A stretch of 64,000 bases of DNA. Source: Patescibacteria group bacterium (GTDB lineage: Bacteria > Patescibacteriota > Patescibacteriia > UBA9934 > GWF2-40-263). A model generated the notes under the pieces. That model was not told where the DNA came from and ran no database searches. It was given only the letters and a program-made list of their open reading frames with translations. This document shows positions 3,551 through 60,577 of this stretch, piece by piece. Each line of letters opens with the position of its first letter. The stretch's first letter is position 1. The stretch lies in contig JBAZTR010000002.1 of assembly GCA_041661745.1 (NCBI GenBank), forward strand, positions 132,368 to 196,367, written 5' to 3'. Position numbers and translations under genes: made by a program.

Positions 3551-5419
3551 ATGGTAGAAAAAATTCAACCTAAACAAGCCCATCGTGGCGGCCAACGTCG
3601 CCATCACCGGGCCGGTTTTCAAAAAACCAAACCGCTCGCCGTTAAAACACCAGAGGTCCCAAAGCCATTGGATAGTTTTAATCGCTTTCGCGGAAAAATT
3701 TTCCGTCGTCAAGACGCCAAACCGCTTCCTTCTAATCAACCGTCGTCACCCGGTGACACCCTGCGGGTGGTTATTATCGGCGGCTGCGAAGAAGTTGGCC
3801 GCAACATGACTGTATTCGAATACGGTAACGATATTGTCATCCTCGACATGGGTATTCAATTCCCCGAGGAGGACATGCCCGGCATTGATTACATTATTCC
3901 GAATATTAGTTACCTGCGCGGCAAAGAAAAAAATATTCGCGCCGTAATTTTTAGCCACGGCCACTTGGACCACATTGGCGCGGCCCCAATTCTTTTAGAA
4001 AAATTGGGTTATCCGCCAATTGTTGGTCGCAGCCTGACCTTGGCCATGATCAAAAAACGCTTGGAAGACCACGAACCAGGCTCAGCCAAAAAATTAAAAA
4101 CCATTCTAATTAAAAATATTAGCGATCGTTTTACTTTTGGTAAATTCAAAGTTGGTTTCTTTGATATCGAGCATTCCATTATGGACGCCGTTGGCGTTAT
4201 TTTGGGCACCCCGGCCGGCAACGTTCTTCACCCCGGTGACTGGACCATGGGTAAGGATGTGGAAAAGAATCAAGTTATTTCTTATCGTCACTTAACCAAA
4301 ATCCCCAGCCCGCGCATTTTAATGCTCGAAAGTTTGGGAGCCATTGATTTTCGAACCGAAACCGTCTCTGACAAAGAAATGTACGAAAATCTACAACTGT
4401 TAATTGATAAGGCCCCGGGCCGAGTGATTATCGGAACTTTCTCTTCGCAGATTAAACGCATTGGTAAACTAATCGAGTACGCCGAAAAAATCGGCAAAAA
4501 AGTTGCTCTCGATGGTTTTAGTATGAAGATGAACGTGGAAATCGCTCAGTCACTTGGTTACATTAAAGTTGCCCGAAACACCCTTATTCCCATCAATGAG
4601 GTTAATAGCCACCCTGATGAAAAAATCGTGATTATTTGTACCGGCGCCCAAGGCGAAGGCAACGCCGTGTTGTCGCGCATCATCAGTGATAACCATCGCT
4701 TCGTTAAAATTAAAAAGAAGGACACTGTCATCTTCTCTTCCTCGGTTATTCCTGGTAACGAACGCACTGTGCAGCGTCTAAAAGACAATCTGTATCGCAA
4801 ATGTGACAACGTTATTCACACCAGTATCATGGATGTGCACGTCAGCGGTCACTCCAACGCCGAAAACATCAAAGAAATGATTCGCCAAACTAAACCCGAC
4901 TTCTTTATTCCGGTTTATGGCAACCACTTCTTCTTAAAGGAGGCCGCCAAACGGGCCGTGGAAATCGGTTTCCCCAAAGAACGAATTATTGTGCCGGACA
5001 ACGGCTCGGTTATTGAATTCAAAAACCGCCAAGCCAAAATATCCGACCAAAAAGTTGATACCAGTTATATCTTTGTCGACGGTTTGGGCATCGGCGATGT
5101 CTCGCAAATCGTTTTGCGTGACCGCCAGGTTTTGTCCGAAGACGGTATGATTGTCGTCATCGTCCAAATCGATCGCAAAACCGGTAAACTGGTCGGCTCG
5201 CCCGACATTATCAGTCGCGGCTTTATCTTCATGAAAGAACATAAAGATTTAATCGAAGCGACTCGTCAAAAAGTCCGCGACATTGCCGCTGATAAGGATC
5301 CAAAAACCGAAGCCGACTCGGATGACATCAAAAACAACATCCGAAACGGCTTAGGCCAGTTCTTGTTCCAAAAAACCGAACGCCGGCCAATGATTCTGCC
5401 GGTTGTAATCGAAGTTTAA
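3551..5419 (+). CDS. rnj: Ribonuclease J (metallo-beta-lactamase / beta-CASP RNase) with basic N-terminal extension
   Basis: HGHLDHIG zinc motif, beta-CASP layout, 622 aa. Confidence 0.85.
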   Translation: MVEKIQPKQAHRGGQRRHHRAGFQKTKPLAVKTPEVPKPLDSFNRFRGKIFRRQDAKPLPSNQPSSPGDTLRVVIIGGCEEVGRNMTVFEYGNDIVILDMGIQFPEEDMPGIDYIIPNISYLRGKEKNIRAVIFSHGHLDHIGAAPILLEKLGYPPIVGRSLTLAMIKKRLEDHEPGSAKKLKTILIKNISDRFTFGKFKVGFFDIEHSIMDAVGVILGTPAGNVLHPGDWTMGKDVEKNQVISYRHLTKIPSPRILMLESLGAIDFRTETVSDKEMYENLQLLIDKAPGRVIIGTFSSQIKRIGKLIEYAEKIGKKVALDGFSMKMNVEIAQSLGYIKVARNTLIPINEVNSHPDEKIVIICTGAQGEGNAVLSRIISDNHRFVKIKKKDTVIFSSSVIPGNERTVQRLKDNLYRKCDNVIHTSIMDVHVSGHSNAENIKEMIRQTKPDFFIPVYGNHFFLKEAAKRAVEIGFPKERIIVPDNGSVIEFKNRQAKISDQKVDTSYIFVDGLGIGDVSQIVLRDRQVLSEDGMIVVIVQIDRKTGKLVGSPDIISRGFIFMKEHKDLIEATRQKVRDIAADKDPKTEADSDDIKNNIRNGLGQFLFQKTERRPMILPVVIEV

Positions 5420-13342: not shown

Positions 13343-13375
13343 AAGGTGGCCGGATTTTTTATCTATTGGTATTAA

Positions 13376-13482
13376 AGGGTTTTGAAGGGTTGGGAAGAGT
13401 TAGGAAGGGTTATTGAGATATATTTCTCTCATAAAAAAGTCCATCCCCCTTCTCAACCCTTCAAGACACTTCCAAACCCAAC
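13376..13482. repeat. Inverted arrays of degenerate GAAGGGTT octamers around an AT-rich core
   Basis: Left arm GGGTTTTGAAGGGTTGGGAAGAGTTAGGAAGGGTT. Right arm CCCTTCTCAACCCTTCAAGACACTTCCAAACCCAACC. Confidence 0.6.
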
Positions 13483-13535: not shown

Positions 13536-14645
13536 ATGAAAATCGGAATTGACGCAAGAATGTATGGGCCAAAGGTGGGGGGCGGTGGTCTTGGGCGCTA
13601 TGTTGAACAACTAGTGACCAAATTGCAAGAAATTGACCAAGAAAACCGCTATATTTTGTTTCTAAAGAAGGAAAATTTTCACCTCTGCCCCATTACTAAT
13701 CCTAACTTTGAAAAACGCCTGGCCGATGTCCCGTGGTATTCCTTTGCCGAACAGTGGGTTCTACCAAGAATAATTGACCGCGAAAGGCTTGATTTGGTTC
13801 ATTTCCCTCACTGGAACATTCCTCTGCTCATTAAAACCCCATTTGTCGTAACTATTCATGATTTGATTCTTTTGGATGATCTCTCCTCAGCCAAAGCCAC
13901 AACTTTGGGACCGGTTCTTTACGCCATTAAACGTTTTGCCTACCGCACCACTTTAATAAATGTCGTTTCAATGAGCGAAAAAATTATCGCCGTTTCCGAG
14001 GCCACCAAACTTTCTATTTTGAAACATTTTCCCAAGGCTAATCAAAAAAAGATCGAAGTGGTTTACGAAGGAGTAATCACTCTTCAGTCTCCCCAGTCTC
14101 TTCAGTCCCCTCAGTCCCTCCTTTATGTCGGTAATTCCTATCCACACAAAAACCTGAAAACCTTACTCGACGCTTTCAAAACATTTTCTGAAAAAAATCC
14201 CGAAGCAAAGCTGATCATGGCCGGGCACAAAGATTTATTCTCCGAAGCGATTGAAAAATACGCACGAGAAAAACAAATAACCAAGGTTGAGTTCTTCCGA
14301 GATATCGATGATACAAAATTAGCTGAACTTTACGCTGAGGCTAAGCTCTATATCTTTCCTTCGCGTCTGGAGGGCTTTGGTCTGCCGGCTCTGGAAGCTA
14401 TGAGTATGAAAGTACCGGTCATTGCTGCCCGAGCTGGCTCGCTGCCTGAAGTGTTGGGCGAGGCCGCGGAATATTTTGACCCGGATAACACCACTGAACT
14501 GGTCGACTTAATGGAAAAACTTTGGCATGACGAAAATCATCGCAACGAACTGATTGCTAAAGGCCTTGAACAAATCAAAAAATACTCTTGGAAAAAAATG
14601 GCGGAGGAGATCAAAAAAATTTATCAAAAGGGACTAGGTGACTGA
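13536..14645 (+). CDS. Glycosyltransferase family 4 with internal SPQSLQ repeat
   Basis: FPSRLEGFGLPALEAMSMKVPVIAA motif. In-frame repeat SPQSLQSPQSL encoded by CTCAGTC-type octamers at 14082-14122. Confidence 0.8.
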   Translation: MKIGIDARMYGPKVGGGGLGRYVEQLVTKLQEIDQENRYILFLKKENFHLCPITNPNFEKRLADVPWYSFAEQWVLPRIIDRERLDLVHFPHWNIPLLIKTPFVVTIHDLILLDDLSSAKATTLGPVLYAIKRFAYRTTLINVVSMSEKIIAVSEATKLSILKHFPKANQKKIEVVYEGVITLQSPQSLQSPQSLLYVGNSYPHKNLKTLLDAFKTFSEKNPEAKLIMAGHKDLFSEAIEKYAREKQITKVEFFRDIDDTKLAELYAEAKLYIFPSRLEGFGLPALEAMSMKVPVIAARAGSLPEVLGEAAEYFDPDNTTELVDLMEKLWHDENHRNELIAKGLEQIKKYSWKKMAEEIKKIYQKGLGD

Positions 14646-14728
14646 AGAGACTGAGATACTGAGTTATGGAAAATCCATAAACTCAGTCCCTCAGTGCCGC
14701 CAGTATCACAGTCCCCCAAACCAAACCA
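14641..14728. repeat. Inverted arrays of degenerate ACTGAG heptamers around a small palindromic core
   Basis: ACTGAAGAGACTGAGATACTGAG .. ATGGAAAATCCAT .. CTCAGTCCCTCAGTGCCGCCAGTATCACAGTCCCCC. Confidence 0.6.
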
Positions 14729-14746: not shown

Positions 14747-17494
14747 ATGGAGGTCAAACGCAAAATAAAAAATAAGAAGAAGCTCGCGGCTAAAAAGCCG
14801 GCGGTTTTGCGTTATCGCGCCCCAAAAACCACCAAGATGTTCGACGAAGGCGTGCCAGCTAATCTTCTTAATTTCTCCGGCTTAAAATTAAATAAACCAA
14901 CAATAAAATTTACCGAGCGAACCGACCTGTCGCCGTTTATTGTCTCTTTTGTTTCAGAAAAACCGGCTATTGAGGAATTGCCGTTGGCCCAATTAAATTT
15001 TGCCGTTCCTGAATACGAATTTCGTCCAATTAAAACAGCTGCAGACGAGTCTTTATTGCACGAAGACTTGCTCGAACAATTTTTAGAAGAGGAACGCACG
15101 CCGTTCCGCTCAAAAAAAATCATACCAGCCGCCGCGCCCGTTTGGCCATCGTTTGAATCAATTAAACAGGCACTGCGAAACTTCACCGGTCGTGAAGAAA
15201 TCATTGAACCGGTCGTCGCCCGATTTGATTTAGATGTTCTTCAACCAGTTTATTCAAAACCAGCCATGATTGTTGAAGAAAAAATTGAGGAAAAACAAAA
15301 CGAATACATTGCTCAGTTCGACTTGCCGGAAATGGAAGAAAACGAAACCGCGGAATCAGAAATTTTAACTTGGGACGATGTTGTTCGTTCCACCATCAAA
15401 GAAGGACCACAGGTTTTTGAGGAAACCGAGGAAGAAATTGAAGCTGAAGAAAAACCAGTCAGTTGGCTTGAATGGTGGAGCACGGTTAAGGTCCCTGTTC
15501 ATTTCGGTTCCCTCGAAATGTCGGCTGGCTGGCATCGCGCCCTAGTGGCTTTTGTCTTGTTATCTTTCGTGTTTGTTCTACCGCTCCACGCCATGGAAAC
15601 AATTCACGACTTACAGAGTGTTAAAAATAATTTATCATCAGCCGGCGTTTCCGCGGTTACTAAACTAAACGAAGCCGTCTTACAGATTACGGCCAATTCC
15701 GCTTCAGCCGCTACTTCATTTGAAGCGGCCAAAAAAGATTTCAGTGCGGCTCGCTCAAATATTGAAAGTCTAAACACCACCGCCGAATTACTTCTTTCTG
15801 TTCTGCCTTCAACCCACAAAGTTTACACTTCCGGCGTCAATTTAATTTCAGCCGGTGAAGAAATCTCCTCGGCTGGTGAAAAAATAAGTCAGGGTCTTTC
15901 CGCCATGCAGACTGATGGGCTGGATACAACCGGCAAGCTAGCAATTTTAACCAAAACTTTCGAAGCGGTTCTGCCAGCGTTGGAACGCGCTGAAAAAAAT
16001 CTTAAAAAAGTTGATCCAACTGTTCTGCCAGCTGAATATCAAGACCGTTTTTCTGAATTACAAACCCTTCTCCCCAGTTTCCTTGCTTCGGCTAAAAACG
16101 TCACGGAATTTTCCGATGTTTTGGCCACCCTACTCGGCGCCGAAGGAAAAAAACGTTATCTACTTCTCTTTCAAAACAACACCGAGATAAGACCAACTGG
16201 TGGTTTTATCGGCAGTTTTGCTATTCTTGATGTTTCGCACGGTGAAATCACCAACTTAGAAGTACCAGAAGGCGGCAGCTACGATTTACAGGGCTCGCTT
16301 AAAGAAAATATCGTTGCCCCGTTACCGTTACAATTAATTTCCGCACGTTGGGAATTTCAGGACAGCAACTGGTTCCCTGATTTCCCCACCTCGGCGCGCC
16401 AAGCCCTAGAATTTTACGAGGATGCCGGTTGGCCGACGGTTGATGGCGTTGTGGCTGTAAACGCAACTTTTGTTTCATCCCTTTTGTCATTACTCGGACC
16501 AGTCGAAATGAGTGAATACGACCGAACCATTGATTCGGAAAACTTTTTGTTTGAAACACAAAAAATGGTTGAGACTGATTACGTTAATTATCAAGATGAA
16601 ACCAGCGAGCGCGAGGAGGCCGCCCCCAAAGCTTTCATTGGTGACCTGGCCGAAGCCCTACTTAGCCGAGTTGGTGATCTCGACACGGCCTTTTTGTTAC
16701 AAGCGCTTGATGCGATTCAAAGCGGTTTGACTCAAAAAGATATTCAACTTTATTTCCCCGACGAAGCAATTCAAAAAGTCGCACAAAAACTGGATTGGAC
16801 CGGCGAAATAAAACAAACCGATCGCGATTACCTAATGATCACCGACACTAACTTGGGCGGCGGAAAAACCGATTTGATTATCAGCGAAAAAGTTGATCTT
16901 AAGGTTTCCGTTCAACCCGATGGTCGCATTATCAACACGCTTACCATTAATCGAAAACACAACGGTATTAACGGAGCCATGTTTACCGGCGTCAATAATG
17001 TAAATTTCATGCGGGTATACGTACCAAAGGGCAGTCGACTTATTTCATCCAATGGTTTTTCCATTCCCGATGTTTCATTGTTTGAAAAACCTGGAGCTGA
17101 CTGGGAACGCGATGTTGATGTTCTATTTGGTGAAGAAAATACTGAAGTCGATCCGATTAGCGGCACCATGGTTAGCGAGGAAGCCGGTAAAACGGTTTTT
17201 GGTAACTGGACACAAACCCGACCAGGCGAAGCTTCAATAATAACTTTTGTCTACGAGTTGCCGTTTGATTTATCCCAACCAACCGGACTTGTTCAAATGG
17301 TAAAAGATAAGGTTGGTTTATCTAGCGGGCTTACTTATTCTCTTTTAACCCAAAAACAATCGGGTTTTCTTGATCGTCAGACCTCCGTTACGGTTGATGC
17401 CCCGAATTTAAAAACGGTCTGGTCATCGGAAGCTACCAATCAAAACACTTTCAGCAACGAAACCGATTCCTTCATAAGTTTTGTCTTTGAGTAA
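14747..17494 (+). CDS. DUF4012-domain protein (large secreted/membrane protein of glycan clusters)
   Basis: 915 aa with a TM segment. NTEIRPTGGFIGSFAILD and WEFQDSNWFPDFP motifs are typical of DUF4012. Confidence 0.55.
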   Translation: MEVKRKIKNKKKLAAKKPAVLRYRAPKTTKMFDEGVPANLLNFSGLKLNKPTIKFTERTDLSPFIVSFVSEKPAIEELPLAQLNFAVPEYEFRPIKTAADESLLHEDLLEQFLEEERTPFRSKKIIPAAAPVWPSFESIKQALRNFTGREEIIEPVVARFDLDVLQPVYSKPAMIVEEKIEEKQNEYIAQFDLPEMEENETAESEILTWDDVVRSTIKEGPQVFEETEEEIEAEEKPVSWLEWWSTVKVPVHFGSLEMSAGWHRALVAFVLLSFVFVLPLHAMETIHDLQSVKNNLSSAGVSAVTKLNEAVLQITANSASAATSFEAAKKDFSAARSNIESLNTTAELLLSVLPSTHKVYTSGVNLISAGEEISSAGEKISQGLSAMQTDGLDTTGKLAILTKTFEAVLPALERAEKNLKKVDPTVLPAEYQDRFSELQTLLPSFLASAKNVTEFSDVLATLLGAEGKKRYLLLFQNNTEIRPTGGFIGSFAILDVSHGEITNLEVPEGGSYDLQGSLKENIVAPLPLQLISARWEFQDSNWFPDFPTSARQALEFYEDAGWPTVDGVVAVNATFVSSLLSLLGPVEMSEYDRTIDSENFLFETQKMVETDYVNYQDETSEREEAAPKAFIGDLAEALLSRVGDLDTAFLLQALDAIQSGLTQKDIQLYFPDEAIQKVAQKLDWTGEIKQTDRDYLMITDTNLGGGKTDLIISEKVDLKVSVQPDGRIINTLTINRKHNGINGAMFTGVNNVNFMRVYVPKGSRLISSNGFSIPDVSLFEKPGADWERDVDVLFGEENTEVDPISGTMVSEEAGKTVFGNWTQTRPGEASIITFVYELPFDLSQPTGLVQMVKDKVGLSSGLTYSLLTQKQSGFLDRQTSVTVDAPNLKTVWSSEATNQNTFSNETDSFISFVFE

Positions 17495-19965: not shown

Positions 19966-20042
19966 TGGTGCGCCCAAGACGATTCGAACGTCTGACTTCT
20001 TCCTTCGGAGGGAAGCGCTCTATCCAGCTGAGCTATGGGCGC
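19966..20042 (-). tRNA. tRNA-Arg (anticodon CCG), encoded CCA
   Basis: Reverse complement reads GCGCCCATAGCTCAGCTGGATAGAGCGCTTCCCTCCGAAGGAAG..TTCGAATCGTCTTGGGCGCACCA. Anticodon loop CTCCGAA. Confidence 0.8.
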
Positions 20043-20264
20043 ATATTATTTTGTTGCGCCTAGCGAAGCTGGCAATTTTTCCAGCTGCCCCGCCGACGGT
20101 GGCCTTTGGCGGGGTCCCGCCAAAACGAAGTGACGGCGGGAAGCTATGGGCGCATATTATTTTGTTGCGCCTAGCGAAGCTGGCAATTTTTCCAGCTGCC
20201 CCGCCGGCGGTGGCCTTTGGCGGGGTCCCGCCAAAACGAAGTGACGGCGGGAAGCTATGGGCGC
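20043..20264 (-). repeat. Two tandem 111-bp units, each made of a tRNA-associated GC-hairpin element plus a 12-nt copy of the tRNA-Arg 5' end
   Basis: AGCTATGGGCGC (reverse complement of the tRNA 5' end GCGCCCATAGCT) recurs at 20031, 20142 and 20253. The units differ by a single A/G. Confidence 0.85.
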
Positions 20265-20406
20265 ATATTGTTTTGCCCTCTTCTGTAAGCTCATACTGTT
20301 GAGCTACGAAGTCCACCGAAGCTCCGAAGCCTATAGATGAAGGCGAGGAGCGAAGGTGGGTGGGCGCATTAAACGAGAGCTTAAACCTCTTTTTTCAACA
20401 AGTCAA

Positions 20407-23007: not shown

Positions 23008-23118
23008 CCCTCTCCTCTTATCCTCCCCCGTCGTGGCGACGAGGGAGGAAGATTAGAATTTTTTAAAAATTAGTTCTCCCTCTCTCGCTGCCACAGCGGG
23101 GGAGGGCTGGGGTGGGGG
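23008..23118. repeat. Pair of pyrimidine/purine perfect-stem palindromes (CCTCCCCCGTCG..CGACGAGGGAGG and CTCCCTCTCTCGCTG..CAGCGGGGGAGGG)
   Basis: Read directly in the 23004-23120 intergenic region. Confidence 0.6.
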
Positions 23119-25126: not shown

Positions 25127-25795
25127 TTAAACTTTCTTTTGCTGTTTCCTTCGCCACTCAGCAATCTTTTTATGATCACCGGAAAGCAAAACCTCCGGCA
25201 CCTTCCACTTTTTATAAACTTCCGGTTTGGTGTATTGCGGATATTCAAGTAGCCCTTCTTCGGTATGTGATTCCTCGGCCAGCGACTCTTTTGCTCCAAG
25301 AACGCCGGGAACATTGCGGGCAATGGCATCGGCCATAATCATAGCCGGAAGCTCCCCGCCAGTTAAGACATACGGACCAACAGAGAATGATTCATCAACC
25401 AAATTTTCTTCCACCCGGGCATCGATTCCTTCATATCGCCCACAGAGAAAAATAATTCGATCGTATTTCGCCAAACGAATGGCATCTTTTTGAGTGAAGG
25501 GTTTCCCTGAGGCCGAAGTCAAAATAACCCGAGTCTTAGAGCCCCTCAACGCCTTAATGTCCTTTAGTGCCCTATCAAAAGCCTCCACTTTCATAACCAT
25601 ACCTGGCCCCCCACCATACGGCGTGTCATCAACCCGATGATGCTTATCTAGAGCCCAATCGCGTAAATTGTGTGATTCTATCTTAATTAGACCGCTTTTC
25701 TGGGCCCGCCCCAAAATTGACTCATTGGTATACAAGGTGATCATTTCGGGAAAAATAGTGAGAAAATCGTATTTGTGAATTTTGGCTTTGGACAT
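25127..25795 (-). CDS. trmD: tRNA (guanine37-N1)-methyltransferase TrmD
   Basis: FLTIFPEM..GGGPGMVMK SPOUT motifs. Confidence 0.9.
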   Translation of the reverse strand: MSKAKIHKYDFLTIFPEMITLYTNESILGRAQKSGLIKIESHNLRDWALDKHHRVDDTPYGGGPGMVMKVEAFDRALKDIKALRGSKTRVILTSASGKPFTQKDAIRLAKYDRIIFLCGRYEGIDARVEENLVDESFSVGPYVLTGGELPAMIMADAIARNVPGVLGAKESLAEESHTEEGLLEYPQYTKPEVYKKWKVPEVLLSGDHKKIAEWRRKQQKKV

Positions 25796-26694: not shown

Positions 26695-28187
<1,493 letters not shown>

Positions 28188-44203: not shown

Positions 44204-44241
44204 TGTCCGCCTTCGTCGAGACTTAAATTCGACTTCGGACG
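44204..44241 (+). repeat. CCGCCTTCGTCGAG..TCGACTTCGGACGG hairpin motif (copy 2)
   Basis: Same orientation as copy 1. Together they bracket the 43.05-44.04 kb GC-rich island. Confidence 0.6.
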
Positions 44242-44325
44242 GATGTCGCTATAAGGCGGATAATCCCACCATAGCCCCGCGAATGCGGGGCGAAGGGGGA
44301 TGATGCCTGTGGGGCTCCATTTTTT

Positions 44326-47371: not shown

Positions 47372-47476
47372 ATATTTATCCACATCGCCCTGAAAATTGG
47401 GCGATTTTGTTTATTGCCTTTTCTTCCTTTCACCTTTAAGATGGAAGGGCTACTGAGAAAACGGGTGGGTATTTTT

Positions 47477-47545
47477 GAGGGCGTTAAGGCCTTAAGGCCG
47501 GGCTCCCTCATTTCCTCAACGCCTAAACGCCTTAGCGCCCCCCCC
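47477..47545. repeat. GC-rich palindromic intergenic repeat, family GGGCG(T/C)TAAGG / CCTTA(A/G)CGCCC (copy R1)
   Basis: GAGGGCGTTAAGGCCTTAAGGCCGGGC..CAACGCCTAAACGCCTTAGCGCCCC. Confidence 0.7.
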
Positions 47546-47582: not shown

Positions 47583-48629
47583 ATGCCTAAACATGTTATC
47601 GAAGAGCCGACGGGTAAATCCCAGGCGGCCACTGAAGCCATTGCCCAAATTCGCCAACGTTTTGGTGAAGGTTCCATTATGAAACTCGGCGAAGCCAAAA
47701 CCATGAAGGTCGATGCTGTAACCACCGGTTGTTTGTCGCTCGACATCGCTCTTGGCGTTGGCGGGGTGCCGCGCGGGCGCATTATCGAAATCTTTGGACC
47801 GGAATCGTCCGGTAAAACCACTTTGGCCCAACACATTGTGGCCGAAGTGCAAAAAGCCGGCGGCGTGGCCGCCTTCGTTGATGCCGAACACGCCCTGGAT
47901 CCTGATTATGCCCAAAAAATCGGCGTCAATATCAACGACCTGCTAATTTCACAGCCTGATAACGGCGAACAAGCTTTAGAAATTGTCGAAACCTTGGTTC
48001 GCTCAAACGGCGTTGATGTTGTGGTAGTTGACTCGGTCGCTGCTCTCACGCCAAAAGCCGAAATCGAAGGCGACATGGGTGACCAGCACATGGGTTTGCA
48101 GGCTCGTCTCATGAGCCAGGCCTTGCGTAAACTCGCGGCCATTGTCGGCAAAACCCACACCATTGTTATTTTCATCAACCAAATCAGAATGAAGATTGGC
48201 GTCTTTTTCGGCAATCCGGAAACCACCACTGGCGGCAATGCTTTAAAATTCTATTCCTCCATGCGCATCGAAATTCGTCGTTCAGCGCAAATCAAACAAG
48301 GCGAAAGAATTATTGGCAACCGCACCCGCGTTAAGGTGGTTAAAAATAAAATGGCTCCGCCTTTCCGCACTTGTGAGTTCGACATTCTTTATAACGAAGG
48401 TATTTCCATTGCCGGTGACATCCTTGATGTTGGTGTGCCGAGCGGGGTTGTTAAAAAGAGCGGCAACTCATACATGTTTAACGAAGAGAAGTTGGGTGTC
48501 GGTCGCGAAGTTGTTAAACAATATCTGCGCGAACATCCCGAAACCATGGCGGCCATTCGCAAAGTGATTACTGACAAAATGGAAGCCGGCGAATTGGAGA
48601 TGGAGGCGTCCGAAGGCGAAGGGGAATAA
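47583..48629 (+). CDS. recA: Recombinase RecA
   Basis: GPESSGKTT Walker A. Conserved L1/L2 regions. 348 aa. Confidence 0.95.
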
Positions 48630-48640
48630 AGTCATAAACA

Positions 48641-48672
48641 AAAAACCAACCGGACAAACGGTTGGTTTTTAA
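48641..48672 (+). terminator. Rho-independent terminator (AAAAACCAACCGGACAAACGGTTGGTTTTTA)
   Basis: Perfect 9-bp stem plus T-run. An identical copy lies at 49319-49350. Confidence 0.7.
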
Positions 48673-48728: not shown

Positions 48729-49316
48729 ATGGAAGAAAATCTAAAACCAATCGCCAATTTCTTATTTGAAACCGGCATGCTACAAAAAACACCACGTAGC
48801 GGTTTTTTCTTTTTAGGTAGTGGCAACCAGTCAGTGGCCGAACATATTAACCGCGTTTCATATGCCGGTTTCACTTTAGCTAAAATGAATGGCCAAGCTG
48901 ATCTAAATAAAATTCTCCAGATGTGCATGTTCCACGATCTTTCCGAGGCCCGAGTTTCCGACCTGAATTATGTTCACCAAAAATACAATGAGCGTTTGGA
49001 AACCAAAGCTGTGGAAGATTTAGCTAATACTCTACCTTTTGGTGATGACATGAAGAAGATAATCGATGAATACGAAGCTAGAGAAACCATCGAAGCCAAA
49101 TTAACAAAAGACGCTGACAACATTGAACTTCTGTTATCACTAAAAGAACAATCAGACATTGGTAACGACCGTGCTGATACTTGGATCCAACCATTACTTG
49201 GTCGTCTACTAACAGAAGAAGGAAAACAACTGGCTCAAGTAATTCTTAATACCGATTCTGATCAATGGTGGTACGGAAACAAAGATGACAAGTGGTGGAT
49301 TAATAGAGATAAGTAA
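48729..49316 (+). CDS. HD-domain phosphohydrolase (YfbR-like 5'-deoxynucleotidase)
   Basis: H..HD..E motifs (EHINRVSYAG, MFHDLSEARVSD). Confidence 0.65.
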   Translation: MEENLKPIANFLFETGMLQKTPRSGFFFLGSGNQSVAEHINRVSYAGFTLAKMNGQADLNKILQMCMFHDLSEARVSDLNYVHQKYNERLETKAVEDLANTLPFGDDMKKIIDEYEARETIEAKLTKDADNIELLLSLKEQSDIGNDRADTWIQPLLGRLLTEEGKQLAQVILNTDSDQWWYGNKDDKWWINRDK

Positions 49317-49318
49317 TC

Positions 49319-49350
49319 AAAAAACCAACCGGACAAACGGTTGGTTTTTA
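49319..49350 (+). terminator. Rho-independent terminator, exact duplicate of the recA terminator
   Basis: AAAAACCAACCGGACAAACGGTTGGTTTTTA. Confidence 0.7.
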
Positions 49351-49400
49351 AATTTTCCAAAGCCTCTCAAGCCTTTCCCGCCTTTCCAGCATCTCAAGCG

Positions 49401-52511: not shown

Positions 52512-52611
52512 TTTCGGTCGGTCAAACTCCCCGAGCCCGACATGCGACTCGGATTTTTATTTTGCGACACATTGTGATATTATCGGGGGGATAAATATGA
52601 TTAATCGGCGT

Positions 52612-52669
52612 CAGGGCGCTAAGGCGTTTAGGCCTTAGGGGCATAACCTTAAAGCCCTTTAACGCCCGG
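52612..52669. repeat. GC-rich palindromic intergenic repeat (copy R2), abutting the methyltransferase start codon
   Basis: CAGGGCGCTAAGGCGTTTAGGCCTTAGGGG..CCTTAAAGCCCTTTAACGCCCGG. Shares the 20-mer GGGCGCTAAGGCGTTTAGGC with the reverse complement of R1. Confidence 0.7.
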
Positions 52670-53995
52670 ATGCCGACCATCCAAACCAATCCCCAAAATA
52701 TGACATTTTTTGTACTCGGTTCTCACCCGGCCCTTTCGGTCGCAGAAATTGCGAACGTGCTTGGTGTGGAAATAAACCACTCACAATATTCAAAAGAAAT
52801 TTTATTGCTCGATGAAATCGGCACTTCACCCGAAGCCCTGCAAGGTCGTTTGGGTGGTACGATTAAAATCGGCGACATTGTCGGCGAAGTGAACCCCCCT
52901 TCGCCGGGCTTCGGCGGGGCAAGAAAAATTGATAAGGAAGAGGTCGCTGATCTTTTTGTTTCGCTTCTCGCCCACCCCTCACCCCTGCCCCTCTCCCTGA
53001 GGGAGAGGGGGGAGGAGGAGAGGGGTAACCGTGTTGTTTTCGGCATCAGCACCTATTCACTCGATGCCCACCGCGATCTTTCGACTGAAGTCAAACAAAT
53101 TGGCATGACCATAAAAACCAAGTTAAAAGAAGAAGGCCGAACCGCTCGTTTTGTTTCGACCAAAACTGCCGCCCTGCCAAGCGCGGCGGTGACCGGCGAA
53201 AAGCTTCTGGAAAACGGAGCTGAATTTGTAATCATTGTCTCTAAAGAAAAAATATACCTTGGTCAAACCCGCATTGTGCAGGATTTTCAAAGCTGGTCAG
53301 CCCGTGACTACGGTCGACCGCGTCGCGATGCCAAGTCCGGCATGTTGCCGCCAAAACTCGCGCGCATGATGATTAATTTGTCCGGCGCCAAAACCTCGGC
53401 TGCTTTGCTCGATCCGTTTTGTGGCTCGGGCACAGTGCTTATGGAAGCGGCGCTAATGGAATTTACCAATCTTATCGGCAGTGATATTTCCGAAAAAGCC
53501 ATTAAGGACACAACAATAAATTTAGATTGGTTAAATCAAAACGAAGAAGTTGATACTTCCGGAATTCGTCTTTTTAATAAACCAATCGAAACCCTGGCCG
53601 GAGACTTAAAAGAAAAAGTTGAGGTGATTGTCGGTGAAACCTATCTCGGTCCACCGCTCTCGGGTCGCGAAACACCGTTTCGACAAAAACAAATCATGGA
53701 CGAGCTGCTTGAACGCACCGCTTCCGGCCTGGCCGCCTTACTTCAACTTCTTAAAAAAGGTGGAACCGTGGTTTTGGCTCTCCCGGCTTTCTGTGCCCGC
53801 CATAGCCCGGCGACGGCGGGTCAGAATGGAAAAAATATTCAATATCTACCAACCAAAAAACTGGCCGAGGCCGTTGGTTTACAAATTGTTCCCTTCACCG
53901 GCGAACCAAACGAGGTTTCGCCTAATGGTGGGCTACTGTATGTTCGTGAAAATCAAAAAGTGGGAAGAGAAATTGTGAAAATGGTTCTTAAATAA
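52670..53995 (+). CDS. THUMP-type class I SAM-dependent RNA methyltransferase (RlmL/Trm11-like) with an in-frame palindromic insertion
   Basis: Motif I LLDPFCGSGTVLMEAA preceded by MLPPKLARMMINLSG. Low-complexity insert HPSPLPLSLRERGEEERGNR encoded by the palindrome at 52988-53010. Confidence 0.55.
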   Translation: MPTIQTNPQNMTFFVLGSHPALSVAEIANVLGVEINHSQYSKEILLLDEIGTSPEALQGRLGGTIKIGDIVGEVNPPSPGFGGARKIDKEEVADLFVSLLAHPSPLPLSLRERGEEERGNRVVFGISTYSLDAHRDLSTEVKQIGMTIKTKLKEEGRTARFVSTKTAALPSAAVTGEKLLENGAEFVIIVSKEKIYLGQTRIVQDFQSWSARDYGRPRRDAKSGMLPPKLARMMINLSGAKTSAALLDPFCGSGTVLMEAALMEFTNLIGSDISEKAIKDTTINLDWLNQNEEVDTSGIRLFNKPIETLAGDLKEKVEVIVGETYLGPPLSGRETPFRQKQIMDELLERTASGLAALLQLLKKGGTVVLALPAFCARHSPATAGQNGKNIQYLPTKKLAEAVGLQIVPFTGEPNEVSPNGGLLYVRENQKVGREIVKMVLK

Positions 53996-54023
53996 ATACC
54001 AAAGGGATTCTTGAATTTAGACG

Positions 54024-54112
54024 GCACTCGGGCCTTAAGGGGCGTTAAGGTTTTGTCTGGGCTTGGATAAAAATTCCATGCCCTAGTGCCCTAAAACGCC
54101 TTAACGCCCGAC
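54024..54112. repeat. GC-rich palindromic intergenic repeat (copy R3)
   Basis: CGGGCCTTAAGGGGCGTTAAGG..GCCCTAAAACGCCTTAACGCCCG. The arms are exact reverse complements (GGGCGTTAAGG / CCTTAACGCCC). Confidence 0.7.
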
Positions 54113-54180
54113 CGTGTCCGTCATAGCTCGCCTCGAGCGACGGCGGAATGCCACCTAGCCACCGCGATTCCAAAAACACT

Positions 54181-55101
54181 ATGCCAACTCAAATCGATAA
54201 ACTCTTAACTGACTTCCTTGAATATCTCGAAGTCGAACGCGGTCGCTCGGCCCGGACGATTAGAAATTACGATTTTTATTTGCGCCGGTTTATTAAATGG
54301 GCACGCCACCCTTCGCCGGCCGGCATTACCGATGATTTGATTCGCAAATTTCGCCTGTGGCTTAATCGTGCTGTGCCCGGACGACTTGATTCCACCATAA
54401 AAAAGAACACACAAAATTATCACCTTATTGCCTTGCGAGCTTTTCTTAAATACTTGGCTCGTCGCGATATAAAATCCATGTCCCCGGAAAAAATCGAGTT
54501 GGCTAAAGCCCCCTCGCGCATTGTTGCTTTTTTAGAAGCCGATGAATTGGATCGTGTTTTACAAATTCCCCTAGCCGCCGGCGAAGATTTAATCGGCTTG
54601 CGCGACAAAGCCATTTTGGAAATGCTTTTTTCGACCGGCCTACGCGTGTCCGAATTGGCTAATTTAAAAATCGATCAGGTAAATTTGAAACGCGACGAAT
54701 TCACTGTCCGCGGCAAAGGCGACAAACCGCGCGTTGTTTTTTTATCCGACTCGGCCAAAGAGTGGTTAAAAAAATATTTAAACAAACGCCACGATACTTC
54801 GCCTTACATGTTCATTTGCCACGACCGTGCCAAACGCGGCCGTGAGGATTCCGGTCCAATTACTCCGCGTTCAATCGAACGGATGGTTGAGTATTGTGCC
54901 AAAGCCGCCGGGGTCACCAAACGCATTACCCCGCACACCTTGCGCCACACTTTTGCCACTGACCTTTTAATGAACGGTGCCGATATTCGTTCAGTTCAAT
55001 CGCTCCTCGGCCACGCTTCCATCACCACCACCCAGGTGTATACTCATATTACGAATAAACAGCTAAAAGAAGTGCATAAAAAATTTCACGATAAGAAATA
55101 A
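54181..55101 (+). CDS. Tyrosine site-specific recombinase XerC/XerD
   Basis: HTLRHTFATDLLMNGADIRSVQSLLGHASITTTQVYTH catalytic box (R, H-x-x-R, Y). Confidence 0.85.
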   Translation: MPTQIDKLLTDFLEYLEVERGRSARTIRNYDFYLRRFIKWARHPSPAGITDDLIRKFRLWLNRAVPGRLDSTIKKNTQNYHLIALRAFLKYLARRDIKSMSPEKIELAKAPSRIVAFLEADELDRVLQIPLAAGEDLIGLRDKAILEMLFSTGLRVSELANLKIDQVNLKRDEFTVRGKGDKPRVVFLSDSAKEWLKKYLNKRHDTSPYMFICHDRAKRGREDSGPITPRSIERMVEYCAKAAGVTKRITPHTLRHTFATDLLMNGADIRSVQSLLGHASITTTQVYTHITNKQLKEVHKKFHDKK

Positions 55102-58230: not shown

Positions 58231-58325
58231 AAAAGGGAGGGAAAGGGTTGGAAAGAGAGTGGAAGAGAGGGAAAGTTTTTCTTACTTTCCTTCCCTTTAA
58301 TCCCCTTTCCTTCTCTTTCATTCTT
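58231..58325. repeat. Inverted arrays of degenerate GGAAAG hexamers (purine arm / pyrimidine arm)
   Basis: GGGAGGGAAAGGGTTGGAAAGAGAGTGGAAGAGAGGGAAAG .. TTTCCTTCCCTTTAATCCCCTTTCCTTCTCTTTC. Confidence 0.6.
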
Positions 58326-58430
58326 TTACAAATACAGTATAACATCAAAATGCCATATTGTAAATGACACAAAGTGGATAACTATCTTGGCTTAAATTGG
58401 CCTAAATATGTAATATCTGCCACTAAAGTC

Positions 58431-58668: not shown

Positions 58669-58974
58669 TTAAGACTCTGTCCTGGCCAGACTTGCCAGGA
58701 ATTAACTTGGATGAAAAGGAGATAAACACGCTATCGGTTGAGTCCAACTCAATGGATTCCCGAGGAGATACGGCGAGAGAGATTATCACCCTTTCAACTA
58801 AGCCAAACTTCTTAACGAGTGCGCAGTGGCCTAATTCCCTACGGGTTGAGTTGGACCACCTGCAGTCTTTAAGAAGACTATGAGGTTCTGCAAGAGGTGT
58901 TGGAACCATCTTCTGCCGGATGAACTTTCACAATTGAATATTCATCAAAAAAACTGACCGATACTTCGGGGGCA

Positions 58975-59017
58975 ATTCGTAATTCGTATATTCGTACGAA
59001 TTCGTAATTTCGTCCCC
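58975..59017 (+). repeat. Array of five TTCGTA hexamers with an embedded palindrome ATTCGTACGAAT
   Basis: AATTCGTAATTCGTATATTCGTACGAATTCGTAATTTCGT. Confidence 0.6.
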
Positions 59018-59215
59018 TCTCTGGAACAAGCCGATTTCGGATACTCGACCTTTAACCAGCCATGCTTGGATTAAAGATCATCGAGCCCGAGACTCAGGAC
59101 GTTCTGGAAGATTCGGTCTTCTTAACGAGGAGGGTTCTTCTTCCTCGGTTCGAATAAGTTCTTAACCCCTCTCCCCAACCCTCCCCCAAGGTGGGAGGGA
59201 GATCTAACTTGAGAA

Positions 59216-59396
59216 CTTTGAGAAAAATATGATTTACCAAATTACCTACATCGCTTCGGCGATCGGAACACTTGGGTTCATGCTCGGATTGAGCTAACCC
59301 AAAAAGCACGAGAGAAAAATCTCACGCGTGCTTCATGATTTATAACCTCACCCCACCCTCTCCTTAGTAAGGAGAGGGAGTTACAGATCACGAAGC
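59216..59396 (+). repeat. 180-bp leader repeat, copy A: mini-ORF + hairpins
   Basis: About 90% identical to 60578-60760. Contains the 22-aa ORF at 59229-59297, an imperfect hairpin AGCACGAGAG..CTCACGCGTGCT, and a perfect hairpin CCCTCTCCTTAGTAAGGAGAGGG. Confidence 0.85.
59229..59297 (+). CDS. 22-aa hydrophobic mini-ORF (MIYQITYIASAIGTLGFMLGLS), leader peptide or type-I-toxin-like
   Basis: Conserved in both copies of the leader repeat (paralog MIYYFVYVASAIGTLGVLLGLS). The differences are largely conservative hydrophobic substitutions. Confidence 0.4.
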   Translation: MIYQITYIASAIGTLGFMLGLS

Positions 59397-59466
59397 ATTC
59401 GAGGAGATCCACCTTCGCCGAGCTTCGGCGGACAAGGAGTCCACGATTGCGAATCCTGTCCATGTT

Positions 59467-59498
59467 GGACGGGTCCGGCAGGCATGCCGTCCTTTTTT
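59467..59498 (+). terminator. Intrinsic terminator / attenuator immediately upstream of the ribosome-binding site and ATG of the first GC-rich gene
   Basis: GGACGGGTCCGGCAGGCATGCCGTCC hairpin, then TTTTTT, then GGAGGAAAACATG. Confidence 0.55.
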
Positions 59499-59508
59499 GG
59501 AGGAAAAC

Positions 59509-60372
59509 ATGCGCTTCGTCATCAGCAGCAATCCCGTCGTCCTCGCCGCCGCCCTGCAGGACAAGCCGTCCGCAACGGTCGAGGCCGAGTACGGCAACGC
59601 CGTGGTCGAGGGCTCTGTCCTCACCATGGCGCACCACGGCCCCCGCGCCGGCCAGCCCGCGCCCTGTGCCTACGAGAACGGCTGCGCCGACGGGGTCGAG
59701 GTGGTGGGCCTGTCCCACTTCGATCTCGACACCCTCGGCGGGTGCGCGGCCATCCTCGGCCGCAAGGTCGAGGCCCCGACCTTCTGGCAGCTCGCCGAGT
59801 TCATCGACCTCAACGGGGCTCACAAGCTCAACGAGGGGATCGAGAAGACCGGCGCGACGCCCGACGACGTGGCCAAGCTCTTCGCCTTCTGGGCGTGGTC
59901 GCGCAACTTCCGCGTCTTCCCGAACCGCGACGGCAGCGTCAGCGACGTCACCGACAAGGTCATCGAGGGCTGCAACGTCCTCGACAAGATCATGAACGGC
60001 GATGCCGACCTGATGAAGGCCGGAACGGTCTACAAGGACGCGGAAGGGAAACTCAACGCCGACTCGTTCGTGGAGGCGAAGGACGGCGTGGTGGTGCGGG
60101 TCTCGTCCCAGTTCACCAACCACCTGTACAACACCCCCGACGGGAAGGCCCACGCCGCGGTCGTGGCCTACACCACGACGACCGGCGCAGTCACGGTCAG
60201 CTTCGCGGACTCCCCCAAGGGCAAGAACGCCCGCCAGATCGTGCAGGAGCTCTGGGGTGAGCTCGCCGGTGGCCACGCCGGAATCGCCGGCAGCCCCCGC
60301 GACCGTCGCATGTCCCTCATCGACCTCACCGCGGCGGTCGAGGCCCTCCGCGCCGCGCTCGCCGGCAAGTAG
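59509..60372 (+). CDS. Hypothetical protein (about 68% GC, foreign composition)
   Basis: ORF 59497..60372 with ATG at 59509 behind a GGAGG ribosome-binding site. Strong GC3 bias. No motif recognised. Confidence 0.55.
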   Translation: MRFVISSNPVVLAAALQDKPSATVEAEYGNAVVEGSVLTMAHHGPRAGQPAPCAYENGCADGVEVVGLSHFDLDTLGGCAAILGRKVEAPTFWQLAEFIDLNGAHKLNEGIEKTGATPDDVAKLFAFWAWSRNFRVFPNRDGSVSDVTDKVIEGCNVLDKIMNGDADLMKAGTVYKDAEGKLNADSFVEAKDGVVVRVSSQFTNHLYNTPDGKAHAAVVAYTTTTGAVTVSFADSPKGKNARQIVQELWGELAGGHAGIAGSPRDRRMSLIDLTAAVEALRAALAGK

Positions 60373-60577
60373 TCACATAGGTTTCTTTCCCAATTTCTTC
60401 TCCTTAGGGCGAAAAAAGTAAATTGGCCATGTGTGCTTTCGAACTCGAGCACGCGTGGAACCGTAGAGTTCAAAAGGAAAGTCGTCTCCCTTTAAGTAGA
60501 CGGCAAAAACAATGCACTCGATTGGCGGATTCACTCCCCGCCTCTTCGACTAAACTCTTGAATTTTCTTTCGAGGGC

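Follow-up and report, generated by a model that had tools for sequence, protein, structure and literature searches.

We report the analysis of three GC-rich palindromic repeats, here named R1, R2 and R3, in a 64,000-nucleotide stretch of DNA (the window) from a metagenome-assembled Patescibacteria genome near Candidatus Uhrbacteria. R1 stands before recA, R2 and R3 stand on either side of a methyltransferase gene, and the gene that follows R3 encodes a tyrosine recombinase of the Xer type. The three repeats are copies of one non-coding palindromic repeat family, and a sub-branch of the Uhrbacteria, represented below by loci that are given by their L numbers, carries many such families.

R1 (47479..47540; like R2 and R3 it is assigned to no strand) is an inverted pair of tandem arrays that folds into a hairpin and belongs to the predicted leader of recA (47583..48629, plus strand; Pfam RecA, E 1.6e-137), ending 42 nt upstream of the recA start. 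It is preceded by a terminator-like hairpin and then by a promoter-like motif, TTGCCT-17 nt-TAAGAT (47414..47442, plus strand), which is conserved in four genomes with or without a hairpin after it (alignment A3). Ahead of R2, a terminator-like hairpin with its T-run (52531..52563, plus strand; recognised by reading the sequence, at a position conserved in relatives) closes the upstream gene and is followed by an extended -10 promoter-like motif, TGTGATATTAT (52573..52583, plus strand; alignment A2), which sits in a block, TTTATTTTGCGACAC..TGTG.TA...T, conserved in seven genomes. R2 itself (52606..52675, core 52614-52667) is a hairpin in the predicted leader of the methyltransferase gene, and its outer stem, CGGCGTC/GATGCCG, encloses a spurious ATG at 52670, the first of the longest open reading frame (ORF). 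The preliminary description of this DNA had the repeat end 1 nt before the methyltransferase ATG; the true start lies at 52700 (MTFFVLG), where NCBI's own protein and 12 homologues agree in placing it, and R2 ends 32 nt upstream of it. R3 (54020..54122, core 54030-54109; outer stem GACGGCAC/GTGTCCGTC), again a hairpin by its fold, takes up most of the spacer between the methyltransferase gene (52700..53995, plus strand) and xerC, and is abutted by a small GC-rich palindrome unrelated to it, CCGTCATAGCTCGCCTCGAGCGACGGCGG (54118..54146, no strand). The same pairing is found in Uhrbacteria UBA12432 (L017), with CCGCCATAGCTCGCC..GACGGCGG directly after the hairpin. Together, R3 and the second small palindrome fill the 185 nt of a spacer that in relatives is called at 42-49 nt or is absent, the genes overlapping. 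The xerC/xerD-type tyrosine recombinase gene that follows (54181..55101, plus strand) starts at MPTQIDKLLTDFLEYLEV (MPTQIDKLL...), as it does in L004, and is a syntenic housekeeping Xer. Lying between a promoter-like motif and a start codon (R1 and R2) or between co-directional genes (R3), all three repeats are predicted to be transcribed as stable hairpins, the promoters being consensus matches backed by conservation.

The methyltransferase, which is of the UPF0020 / Trm11-Trm14-RlmL-like kind, matches UPF0020 with an E of 4.8e-14, and the curated families closest to it are those of RNA guanine-N2 methyltransferases (TIGR01177, Trm14, EmtA, RlmL), all under their cut-offs. Among 8,000 candidates scored, 3,292 homologues were found at E<=1e-10, almost all of them in Patescibacteria. 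The order FtsK, HTH protein, recA, HD, EF-P, S18, SSB, S6, TK, methyltransferase, Xer, judged whole or over the part covered by each contig, is kept at 59-74% identity, and the place and neighbours of the methyltransferase gene are unchanged in L003, L004, L005, L070 and L071/L072; at 39-43% identity (L153-L155) the gene still adjoins S6-SSB-S18 (rpsF-ssb-rpsR). It is in place with no adjacent repeat of the R1-R3 family in L003, L004, L070 and L071. The preliminary description had suggested that this gene may be a mobilised cassette and had proposed that its presence or absence be compared between strains; the comparison across relatives finds it fixed in place without family repeats beside it, which is the very outcome named there as counting against the idea. 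By its synteny and distribution, the methyltransferase is an ordinary fixed housekeeping gene and not a mobile or restriction-modification-type cassette.

Each arm of the repeats is a short tandem array of units of 8-10 nt (GGCGTTAAG; arrays of the R1-R3 type are also written as GGCGTTAAGG arrays), and a similar array, reverse-complemented, makes up the opposite arm. In R1-R3, all intergenic, the G-rich array comes first and the C-rich array second, and the centre of the element is usually A+T-rich. The unit length is irregular, varying from 8 to 10 nt even inside one arm. The left arm of R1 reads GGGCGTTAA|GGCCTTAA|GGCCGGG and its right arm, when reverse-complemented, GGGCGCTAA|GGCGTTTA|GGCGTTGA|GGAAATGA, while the left arm of R3 reads GGGCCTTAAG|GGGCGTTAAG|GTTTTGTCTG|GGCTTGGATA. 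The two arms of one copy are similar and not identical, differing by mismatches and by one-unit differences in length. We considered the G-rich-first arrangement as a possible signal of the direction of transcription and discarded it: a palindrome of this sort reads alike on either strand, and C-first families also exist (TTTTCTAA units; the palindrome at 23022).

That the three copies exceed chance is seen in the terminal unit GGGCGTTAAGG, which with at most one mismatch has nine matches in the 64-kb window against 1.42 expected, a count reached in none of 100 shuffles, and in the looser unit GGCNYTWAGG, whose 11 occurrences in the 64 kb all fall within R1, R2 or R3. The right arm of R1 and the left arm of R2 are complementary over 23 nt (96%), and R3 ends in exact inverted repeats of 11 nt, GGGCGTTAAGG at 54040-54050 and CCTTAACGCCC at 54099-54109; the same terminal inverted repeats carry one mismatch in R1 and R2. 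The elements measure 54-103 nt and, with these termini, have the small size and inverted ends of MITEs (miniature transposable elements with inverted repeats). All three fold as long imperfect hairpins, with energies of -29.4 kcal/mol (z -3.75) for R1, -38.2 kcal/mol (z -4.37) for R2 and -50.7 kcal/mol (z -6.05) for R3, the hairpins of R2 and R3 running into their flanks (52606-52675 and 54020-54122). Three points of the preliminary description, namely the presence of three GC-rich palindromes at these places, the sharing of reverse-complement sequence between R1 and R2 and the exact reverse-complement arms of R3, are borne out by these results. Its picture of an AT-rich genome is not, the GC content being 45.4% over positions 1-58900; that of the repeats is 51-61%. 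R2 and R3 are 100% identical in two independent Logan assemblies, both of whose contigs stop short of R1, and because these assemblies are base-identical there the two repeats are not assembly artefacts. Exactly this strain is present in the samples of SRR18595301 and SRR6484324. In the source genome three copies were seen in 64 kb, all within 7 kb, and none in the approximately 2.6 kb past the left end. A profile built from 13 arms found no further intergenic copy in the window, the sole extra match being a weak one within trmD (25535-25574, minus strand, E 4e-4), which encodes RALKDIKALRG and is probably due to chance.

Several features of known repeats and RNA elements were sought in R1-R3. 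The flanks of seven copies hold no direct duplication of a target site; four of them have a T-run on the left, and the flanks of R2 and R3 are inverted and not direct. No parent insertion sequence with matching ends was seen in the window or at the relatives' loci examined. The GTAG head tetranucleotide is absent from R1-R3, a terminator scan lists no intrinsic terminator at R1-R3 and there is no T-run after the stems (one precedes R1), and Rfam 15 gives no match over R1-R3 at the gathering threshold or at E<=1.

Outside the window, copies in L005, L042, L017, L016/L030, L115, L095 and L102 were all scored by an arm-profile search. L005 (74% identity) has single-arm GGCGTTAAG-family arrays after recA and after EF-P. 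Two-arm copies occur in the Uhrbacteria L042 and L017, in L016 (labelled 'bacterium') and in the metagenome contig L115, and single arms in L030, L095 and L102; in L030 a genuine one-arm array forms the last codons of uvrB. Several copies resemble R1 in their flanks, which have a T-run on the left side and, in R1 and L042, CCCCCCCACAA on the right. An orthologous position for the L042 copy was rejected, ftsH and the next gene there being unlike the two window ORFs compared. L017 and L071 come from one genome, whose methyltransferase is only 59% identical to that of the window, and GGGCGTTAAGG, the terminal unit, is kept in genomes with a methyltransferase identity of 59-74%. The GGCGTTAAG family is dispersed, common to a fairly deep clade, and lies at differing places in each genome. 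The likening of the repeats to REP, BIME or MITE elements (repetitive extragenic palindromes, bacterial interspersed mosaic elements and MITEs) therefore stands in its broad sense of a dispersed extragenic palindrome family, with copies at non-orthologous sites in other Uhrbacteria; confinement to three sites, the contrary outcome foreseen by the preliminary description, holds within the window and fails beyond it, since the family is also present in other Uhrbacteria genomes.

A scan of species-representative genomes, a collection without the source genome, for the pattern GGGCGYTAAGGCGTTN{1,2}AGG gave 63 matches, most of which are due to chance or belong to unrelated pure tandem arrays of Bacteroidota. 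The same pattern gave at least 80 matches in metagenomes and, among the matches listed, only L115, L095 and L102 clearly belong to the GGCGTTAAG family; loci found in this way are biased toward the pattern. L127, L131 and L146 were considered as members of the family and set aside as look-alikes in other organisms. In Bacteroidota the GGGCGTTAA / GGCGTTTA unit of 8-9 nt is repeated up to 24 times in pure tandem arrays, one of which lies upstream of a tRNA gene, and arrays of this unit are seen in L022 (7240-7475), L059/L097, L151, L060 (3960-4050), L127, L131 and L146, with inverted, hairpin-type arrays in two high-GC contigs (L127, L131) and in one contig of 38% GC (L146). Either a unit has recurred in different phyla or, repeat families being very numerous, the resemblance is due to chance.

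Hairpins of the same build made from other units are found by sliding-window folding in three further spacers of the window, at 13368-13478, 14630-14715 and 58233-58327, with TTGAAGGG-like, GACTGAGA-like and GGGAAAG-like units, respectively. The last of these stands upstream of a gene for a TrmB-family regulator, whose longest ORF wrongly runs through the hairpin. A nested, C-first palindrome at 23022-23105, of the form CCTCCCCCG..hairpin..GAGGGAGG, has a clear homologue of the form CCTCCCTC..hairpin..CGGGGGAGGGCTGGGGTGGGGG after uvrB in L030 (5655-5775), and it contains one of the few canonical quadruplex motifs of the window (23098-23118). In the syntenic block of L004, hairpins occur in about 8 of 13 spacers and occupy all three of the gaps S6-SSB, SSB-S18 and S18-EF-P, each beginning a few nt past the stop codon and ending about 8-25 nt short of the following start; the window genome has spacers of 3-13 nt where L004 has these 100-nt hairpins. 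Among relatives at 39-43% identity, a strict periodicity filter flagged none in L153 and gave no convincing example in L154 or L155, the one flagged hairpin in each of the latter being judged GC-rich coding sequence. This autocorrelation filter misses R1-R3, whose unit length varies, and its counts are lower bounds. Such hairpins are pervasive in one sub-branch of the Uhrbacteria.

The most telling comparison is that of the three orthologous spacers. Upstream of recA, a hairpin of 190 nt in L003 has arms of GGGTTTA units and encloses another small palindrome in its loop, the hairpin of L004 consists of GGAGTG/CCACTCCA units, and L071 has no hairpin. Upstream of the methyltransferase gene, the units are GGGTTTA in L003 and the A+T-rich TTCGTAAT in L004, and no hairpin is found in L005, L070 or L071; the closest relative, L069 (79% protein and 80% DNA identity), has only a C-rich right arm, clearly homologous to the right arm of R2. 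In the spacer between the methyltransferase and Xer genes, the units are GGGATTT in L003 and TTTTACG in both L004 and L005; L071 carries a hairpin of 150 nt made of TTTACAAAT-like units, and in L070 the two genes overlap. The architecture recurs across orthologous spacers; the sequence, and even the presence of an element, do not. Between strains, compared for the number of units, L001 and L002 are identical to the window, and L071 and L072 differ only at an assembly gap.

Short palindromes also enter genes. Against its closest homologue, that of L069, the methyltransferase gene of the window has two insertions of 30 nt and one of 44 nt, GC-rich, palindromic and in frame overall: that at 52894-52923 (30 nt) adds NPPSPGFGGA, that at 52980-53023 measures 44 nt, and that at 53791-53820 (30 nt) adds CARHSPATAG. 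In a manual alignment the two 30-mers, in opposite orientation, match at 23 of 30 positions. Other homologues (P0003-P0007, P0012) have similar GC-rich inserts at another site. As read from these alignments, the inserts show that precise insertion of short palindromes is apparently ongoing in the lineage, and this makes an insertion origin for R1-R3 plausible.

The small palindrome that abuts R3 belongs to a second dispersed, GC-rich family, CC(G/A)CC(A/T)T(A/C)GC...GC(T/G)(A/T)CGG(C/T)GG, seen in the window at 54118-54146, 44206-44315, 59409-59431 and 61568-61590 and in relatives at L005 421-460, L003 700-770, L017 4140-4172 and L071 13001-13110 and 13985-14030. Its sites are spacers, the interior of larger hairpins and coding sequence, and its core, CCATAGCTC, resembles the 5' end of tRNA genes. 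At 20031-20275, a 111-bp unit that begins inside the 5' part of tRNA-Arg(CCG) is repeated about 2.2 times in tandem at 99% identity; it contains a palindrome, CCCGCC..GGCCTTTGGCGGGGTCCCGCC, that also lies beside tRNA-Leu (3352) and tRNA-Pro (29877). Two-way terminator hairpins of 38 nt, AAAAACCAACCGGACAAACGGTTGGTTTTT, stand one on each side of the HD-domain gene (48635-48672 and 49314-49351, 97% identical), and similar terminator-like hairpins, AAAACCAACCG..CGGTTGGTTTT (or ..TGGTTGGTTTT), recur in L003 and L005. Most genes of the window lack a Shine-Dalgarno sequence (for example those starting at 3551, 7430, 13536, 47583 and 55105), though the 16S rRNA keeps its CCUCC tail (3' end near 28175); after the 16S gene come tRNA-Ile and tRNA-Phe in place of a 23S gene. 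The last 5 kb (58901-64000), with a MoxR-like AAA ATPase, have 60.5% GC against 45.4% elsewhere and hold two 179-nt direct repeats of 88% identity (59223-59401 and 60588-60766); this segment is either foreign DNA or a chimeric assembly join.

Among known systems, the REP, BIME and REPIN elements of Gammaproteobacteria (REPINs being REP doublets that form hairpins of about 100 nt) are dispersed extragenic imperfect palindromes, GC-richer than their genome. A REP is a palindrome of 20-40 nt with a GTAG head, present in tens to hundreds of extragenic copies per genome, and the gene of the REP-associated tyrosine transposase (RAYT) is usually repeat-flanked; BIMEs are associated with gyrase and IHF. 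R1-R3 are like these elements in being extragenic imperfect palindromes, GC-richer than the genome and often placed between operon genes or in untranslated regions. They differ in lacking the GTAG head and in having tandem arrays as arms instead of a single palindrome, and no RAYT gene was seen among the window proteins. With MITEs they share terminal inverted repeats (exact over 11 nt in R3), small size, intergenic position and presence or absence among relatives; unlike MITEs, they have neither a target-site duplication nor a parent insertion sequence in the window or at the examined loci, and the whole element is a hairpin of tandem units. The palindromic elements of Rickettsia lie in frame in protein-coding genes, add a peptide loop and measure roughly 100-150 nt. 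The 30-44 nt inserts of the methyltransferase gene resemble them as small in-frame palindromes, and are shorter, of another sequence family and in another phylum.

Repeats of short tandem units are the other point of comparison. In the short tandemly repeated repetitive (STRR) heptamers of cyanobacteria and in TAACTGA repeats almost all are direct repeats, whereas the inverted pair is the rule in elements of the R1-R3 type. In Beggiatoaceae, Cyanobacteria and Bacteroidetes, TAACTGA heptamers stand upstream of start codons, and they have no known vector (MacGregor 2015, PMC4679880). They have in common with the present elements short tandem units just upstream of starts, in genes without a Shine-Dalgarno sequence, and a unit that recurs in distant phyla, the parallel here being the (GGGCGTTAA)n arrays of Bacteroidota and the hairpin forms seen in high-GC contigs. 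Of the architectures described, the nearest is that of the inverted pairs of GGGAATC heptamers in Xanthomonas, of which there are 70-75 per genome, intergenic, mostly transcribed and of unknown function (Rehm et al. 2015, PMC4692102); inverted-pair repeats of GGGGA(C/T)T occur in Nostoc (PMC4692102). Like those pairs, R1-R3 consist of short intergenic tandem units (7-10 nt across these systems, 8-10 nt in R1-R3) in two convergent arrays on opposite strands, from which a stem-loop or cruciform could form, and, as in Xanthomonas, the copy number varies and the elements are mostly transcribed or predicted to be so. Unlike the Xanthomonas pairs, R1-R3 have irregular units of 8-10 nt that do not follow the four-G-tract rule, many unrelated unit types occur, A+T-rich ones among them, the same spacer holds different families in relatives, and the host is a small-genome Patescibacterium. 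No prior description of such elements in Patescibacteria was found in the literature searched. We would class them as a known kind, inverted pairs of short tandem repeats, in a new variant, with REP/BIME/REPIN elements and MITEs as apparent functional or evolutionary analogues.

We consider it probable, with some reserve, that R1-R3 are repeat elements of the DNA itself: inverted pairs of short tandem arrays that change by slippage and by gain or loss of an arm, that are copied or inserted into spacers, and whose transcription is incidental. The observations behind this reading can be made directly on the sequences, and they are membership in one family, dispersal, presence or absence and replacement of one family by another in orthologous spacers, the half-element that the nearest relative has, and the lack of a strand bias. 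The arrays would grow and shrink by slippage of their short units, and a single array may become a hairpin by inverted duplication or, as the half-element of L069 would equally allow, a hairpin may lose one arm by deletion. Families would then be copied or inserted into new spacers by some route, and R1-R3 would neither delimit nor move the methyltransferase gene. If the promoter-like motifs are active, as we assume, protection of message ends, cleavage by RNase III, a roadblock or any other effect on the message would probably be a by-product. Since neither a transposase, nor a target-site duplication, nor a donor copy was found, it is from their distribution that we call these elements mobile.

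A number of points weigh against this reading. The absence of a transposase, a target-site duplication and a donor copy, among the window proteins scanned and at the examined loci, is the first. The source genome was read over 64 kb and holds three copies within 7 kb. The unit GGGCGTTAAGG is kept across genomes at 59% methyltransferase identity, which pure slippage would not preserve and which points to a sequence-specific partner, and none was found. The hairpins that three genomes have in the same three spacers could reflect selection for a hairpin rather than tolerance. Finally, the comparison of wobble pairs given below comprises only 48 informative mismatches, and in young elements no wobble bias is expected under any model.

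It is possible, if unlikely, that R1-R3 are instead RNA hairpins selected in leaders and between cistrons, where they would protect ends, be cut by RNase III or set relative expression, with only their shape under selection while the sequence turns over. R1 and R2 do lie downstream of promoter-like motifs conserved in four and seven genomes, the hairpins of L004 fit the stop-to-start gaps of the essential rpsF-ssb-rpsR operon, hairpins of unrelated sequence stand in the same three spacers of three genomes, and the stems, of 20-50 bp, have energies far below those of shuffles. Were the stems kept as RNA, however, G.U pairs should outnumber A.C mismatches on the transcribed strand, and in 26 hairpins of known sense strand, with 877 Watson-Crick pairs, there are 22 G.T against 26 A.C, a ratio compatible with 1:1 (p=0.67) and not with 3:1 (p=1.5e-5). 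We find no sign of selection at the RNA level. The close relatives L070, L071 and L005 lack hairpins in the same spacers, the window has spacers of 3-13 nt in place of the 100-nt hairpins of L004, single-arm forms exist, and the stems have neither an Rfam match nor a T-run after them.

That the repeats are DNA sites recognised by a protein, either a domesticated Y1 transposase in the style of REP/REPIN and RAYT or a nucleoid or topoisomerase protein, which keeps families uniform and copies them, we regard as rather improbable. The conservation of GGGCGTTAAGG at 59-74% methyltransferase identity, a unit spacing of 8-10 bp, near one helical turn, and symmetry at the DNA level are what such a protein would lead one to expect, and a more distant Uhrbacteria relative, L153, has a Y1-transposase (PF01797) gene of 286 aa (15124-15984). 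On the other hand, no such protein, and no Y1 (RAYT) transposase gene, was found among the window proteins scanned; L153, with its Y1 gene, shows none of these palindromes in 21 kb; several unrelated unit types per genome would need several specific proteins; and the unit length changes from 8 to 10 inside a single arm.

Very improbable is a role of the G-rich arms as quadruplex repeats, as has been proposed for the Xanthomonas GGGAATC inverted pairs whose architecture they match (PMC4692102), or of the repeats as a small guide array resembling the TIGR (tandem interspaced guide RNA) arrays, which occur in Patescibacteria with 36-nt units, two spacers per unit and a Nop-domain Tas protein (PMC12045711), or those of CRISPR (short palindromic repeats that are clustered and regularly interspaced): R1-R3 contain no canonical four-tract G3+ quadruplex motif and some sister families are A+T-rich without G tracts, and they show a period of 8-10 nt in place of a dual repeat of 36 nt, they have no spacers, and no gene with a Nop domain lies nearby among the proteins scanned. 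The notion that R2 and R3 are recombination or transposition ends of a methyltransferase cassette moved with the help of the adjacent Xer is close to negligible, for although a single gene does stand between the two repeats with a tyrosine recombinase gene next to it, that gene belongs to the widespread core and is syntenic in every relative examined, whether repeats are present or not, R2 and R3 each form a complete hairpin instead of one half of an element, a third copy, R1, stands beside recA, and the recombinase, to which the preliminary description had looked as a mobilising neighbour, is itself a syntenic housekeeping XerC/D.

The repeats carry a warning for annotation, having created the false methyltransferase start at 52670 and, probably, false Xer starts at 54148 and in L003. 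If they are neutral DNA-level elements, they would provide a handy clock and a marker for strain tracking. A bolder view, which we put forward only tentatively and think unlikely, is that this sub-branch of the Uhrbacteria has its own way of making and renewing hairpins, by which lineage-specific palindromes of 7-10 nt units would repeatedly refill the spacers, among them all the gaps in an essential ribosomal-protein operon, and by which related palindromes of 30-44 nt enter genes in frame. Were that so, it would call for an enzyme devoted to the task, be it a nuclease, a transposase or one that adds templated repeats at breaks before they are joined head to head, or else for selection that favours sequence-free hairpins as punctuation between genes where Shine-Dalgarno sequences are mostly missing. 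Patescibacteria are described as streamlined, with little spare DNA, and yet this sub-branch tolerates or uses palindromes of 60-110 nt in many spacers, and even in conserved genes. If the elements are functional, they would represent a sequence-free structuring of leaders and operon junctions in organisms whose ribosome-binding sites are mostly missing.

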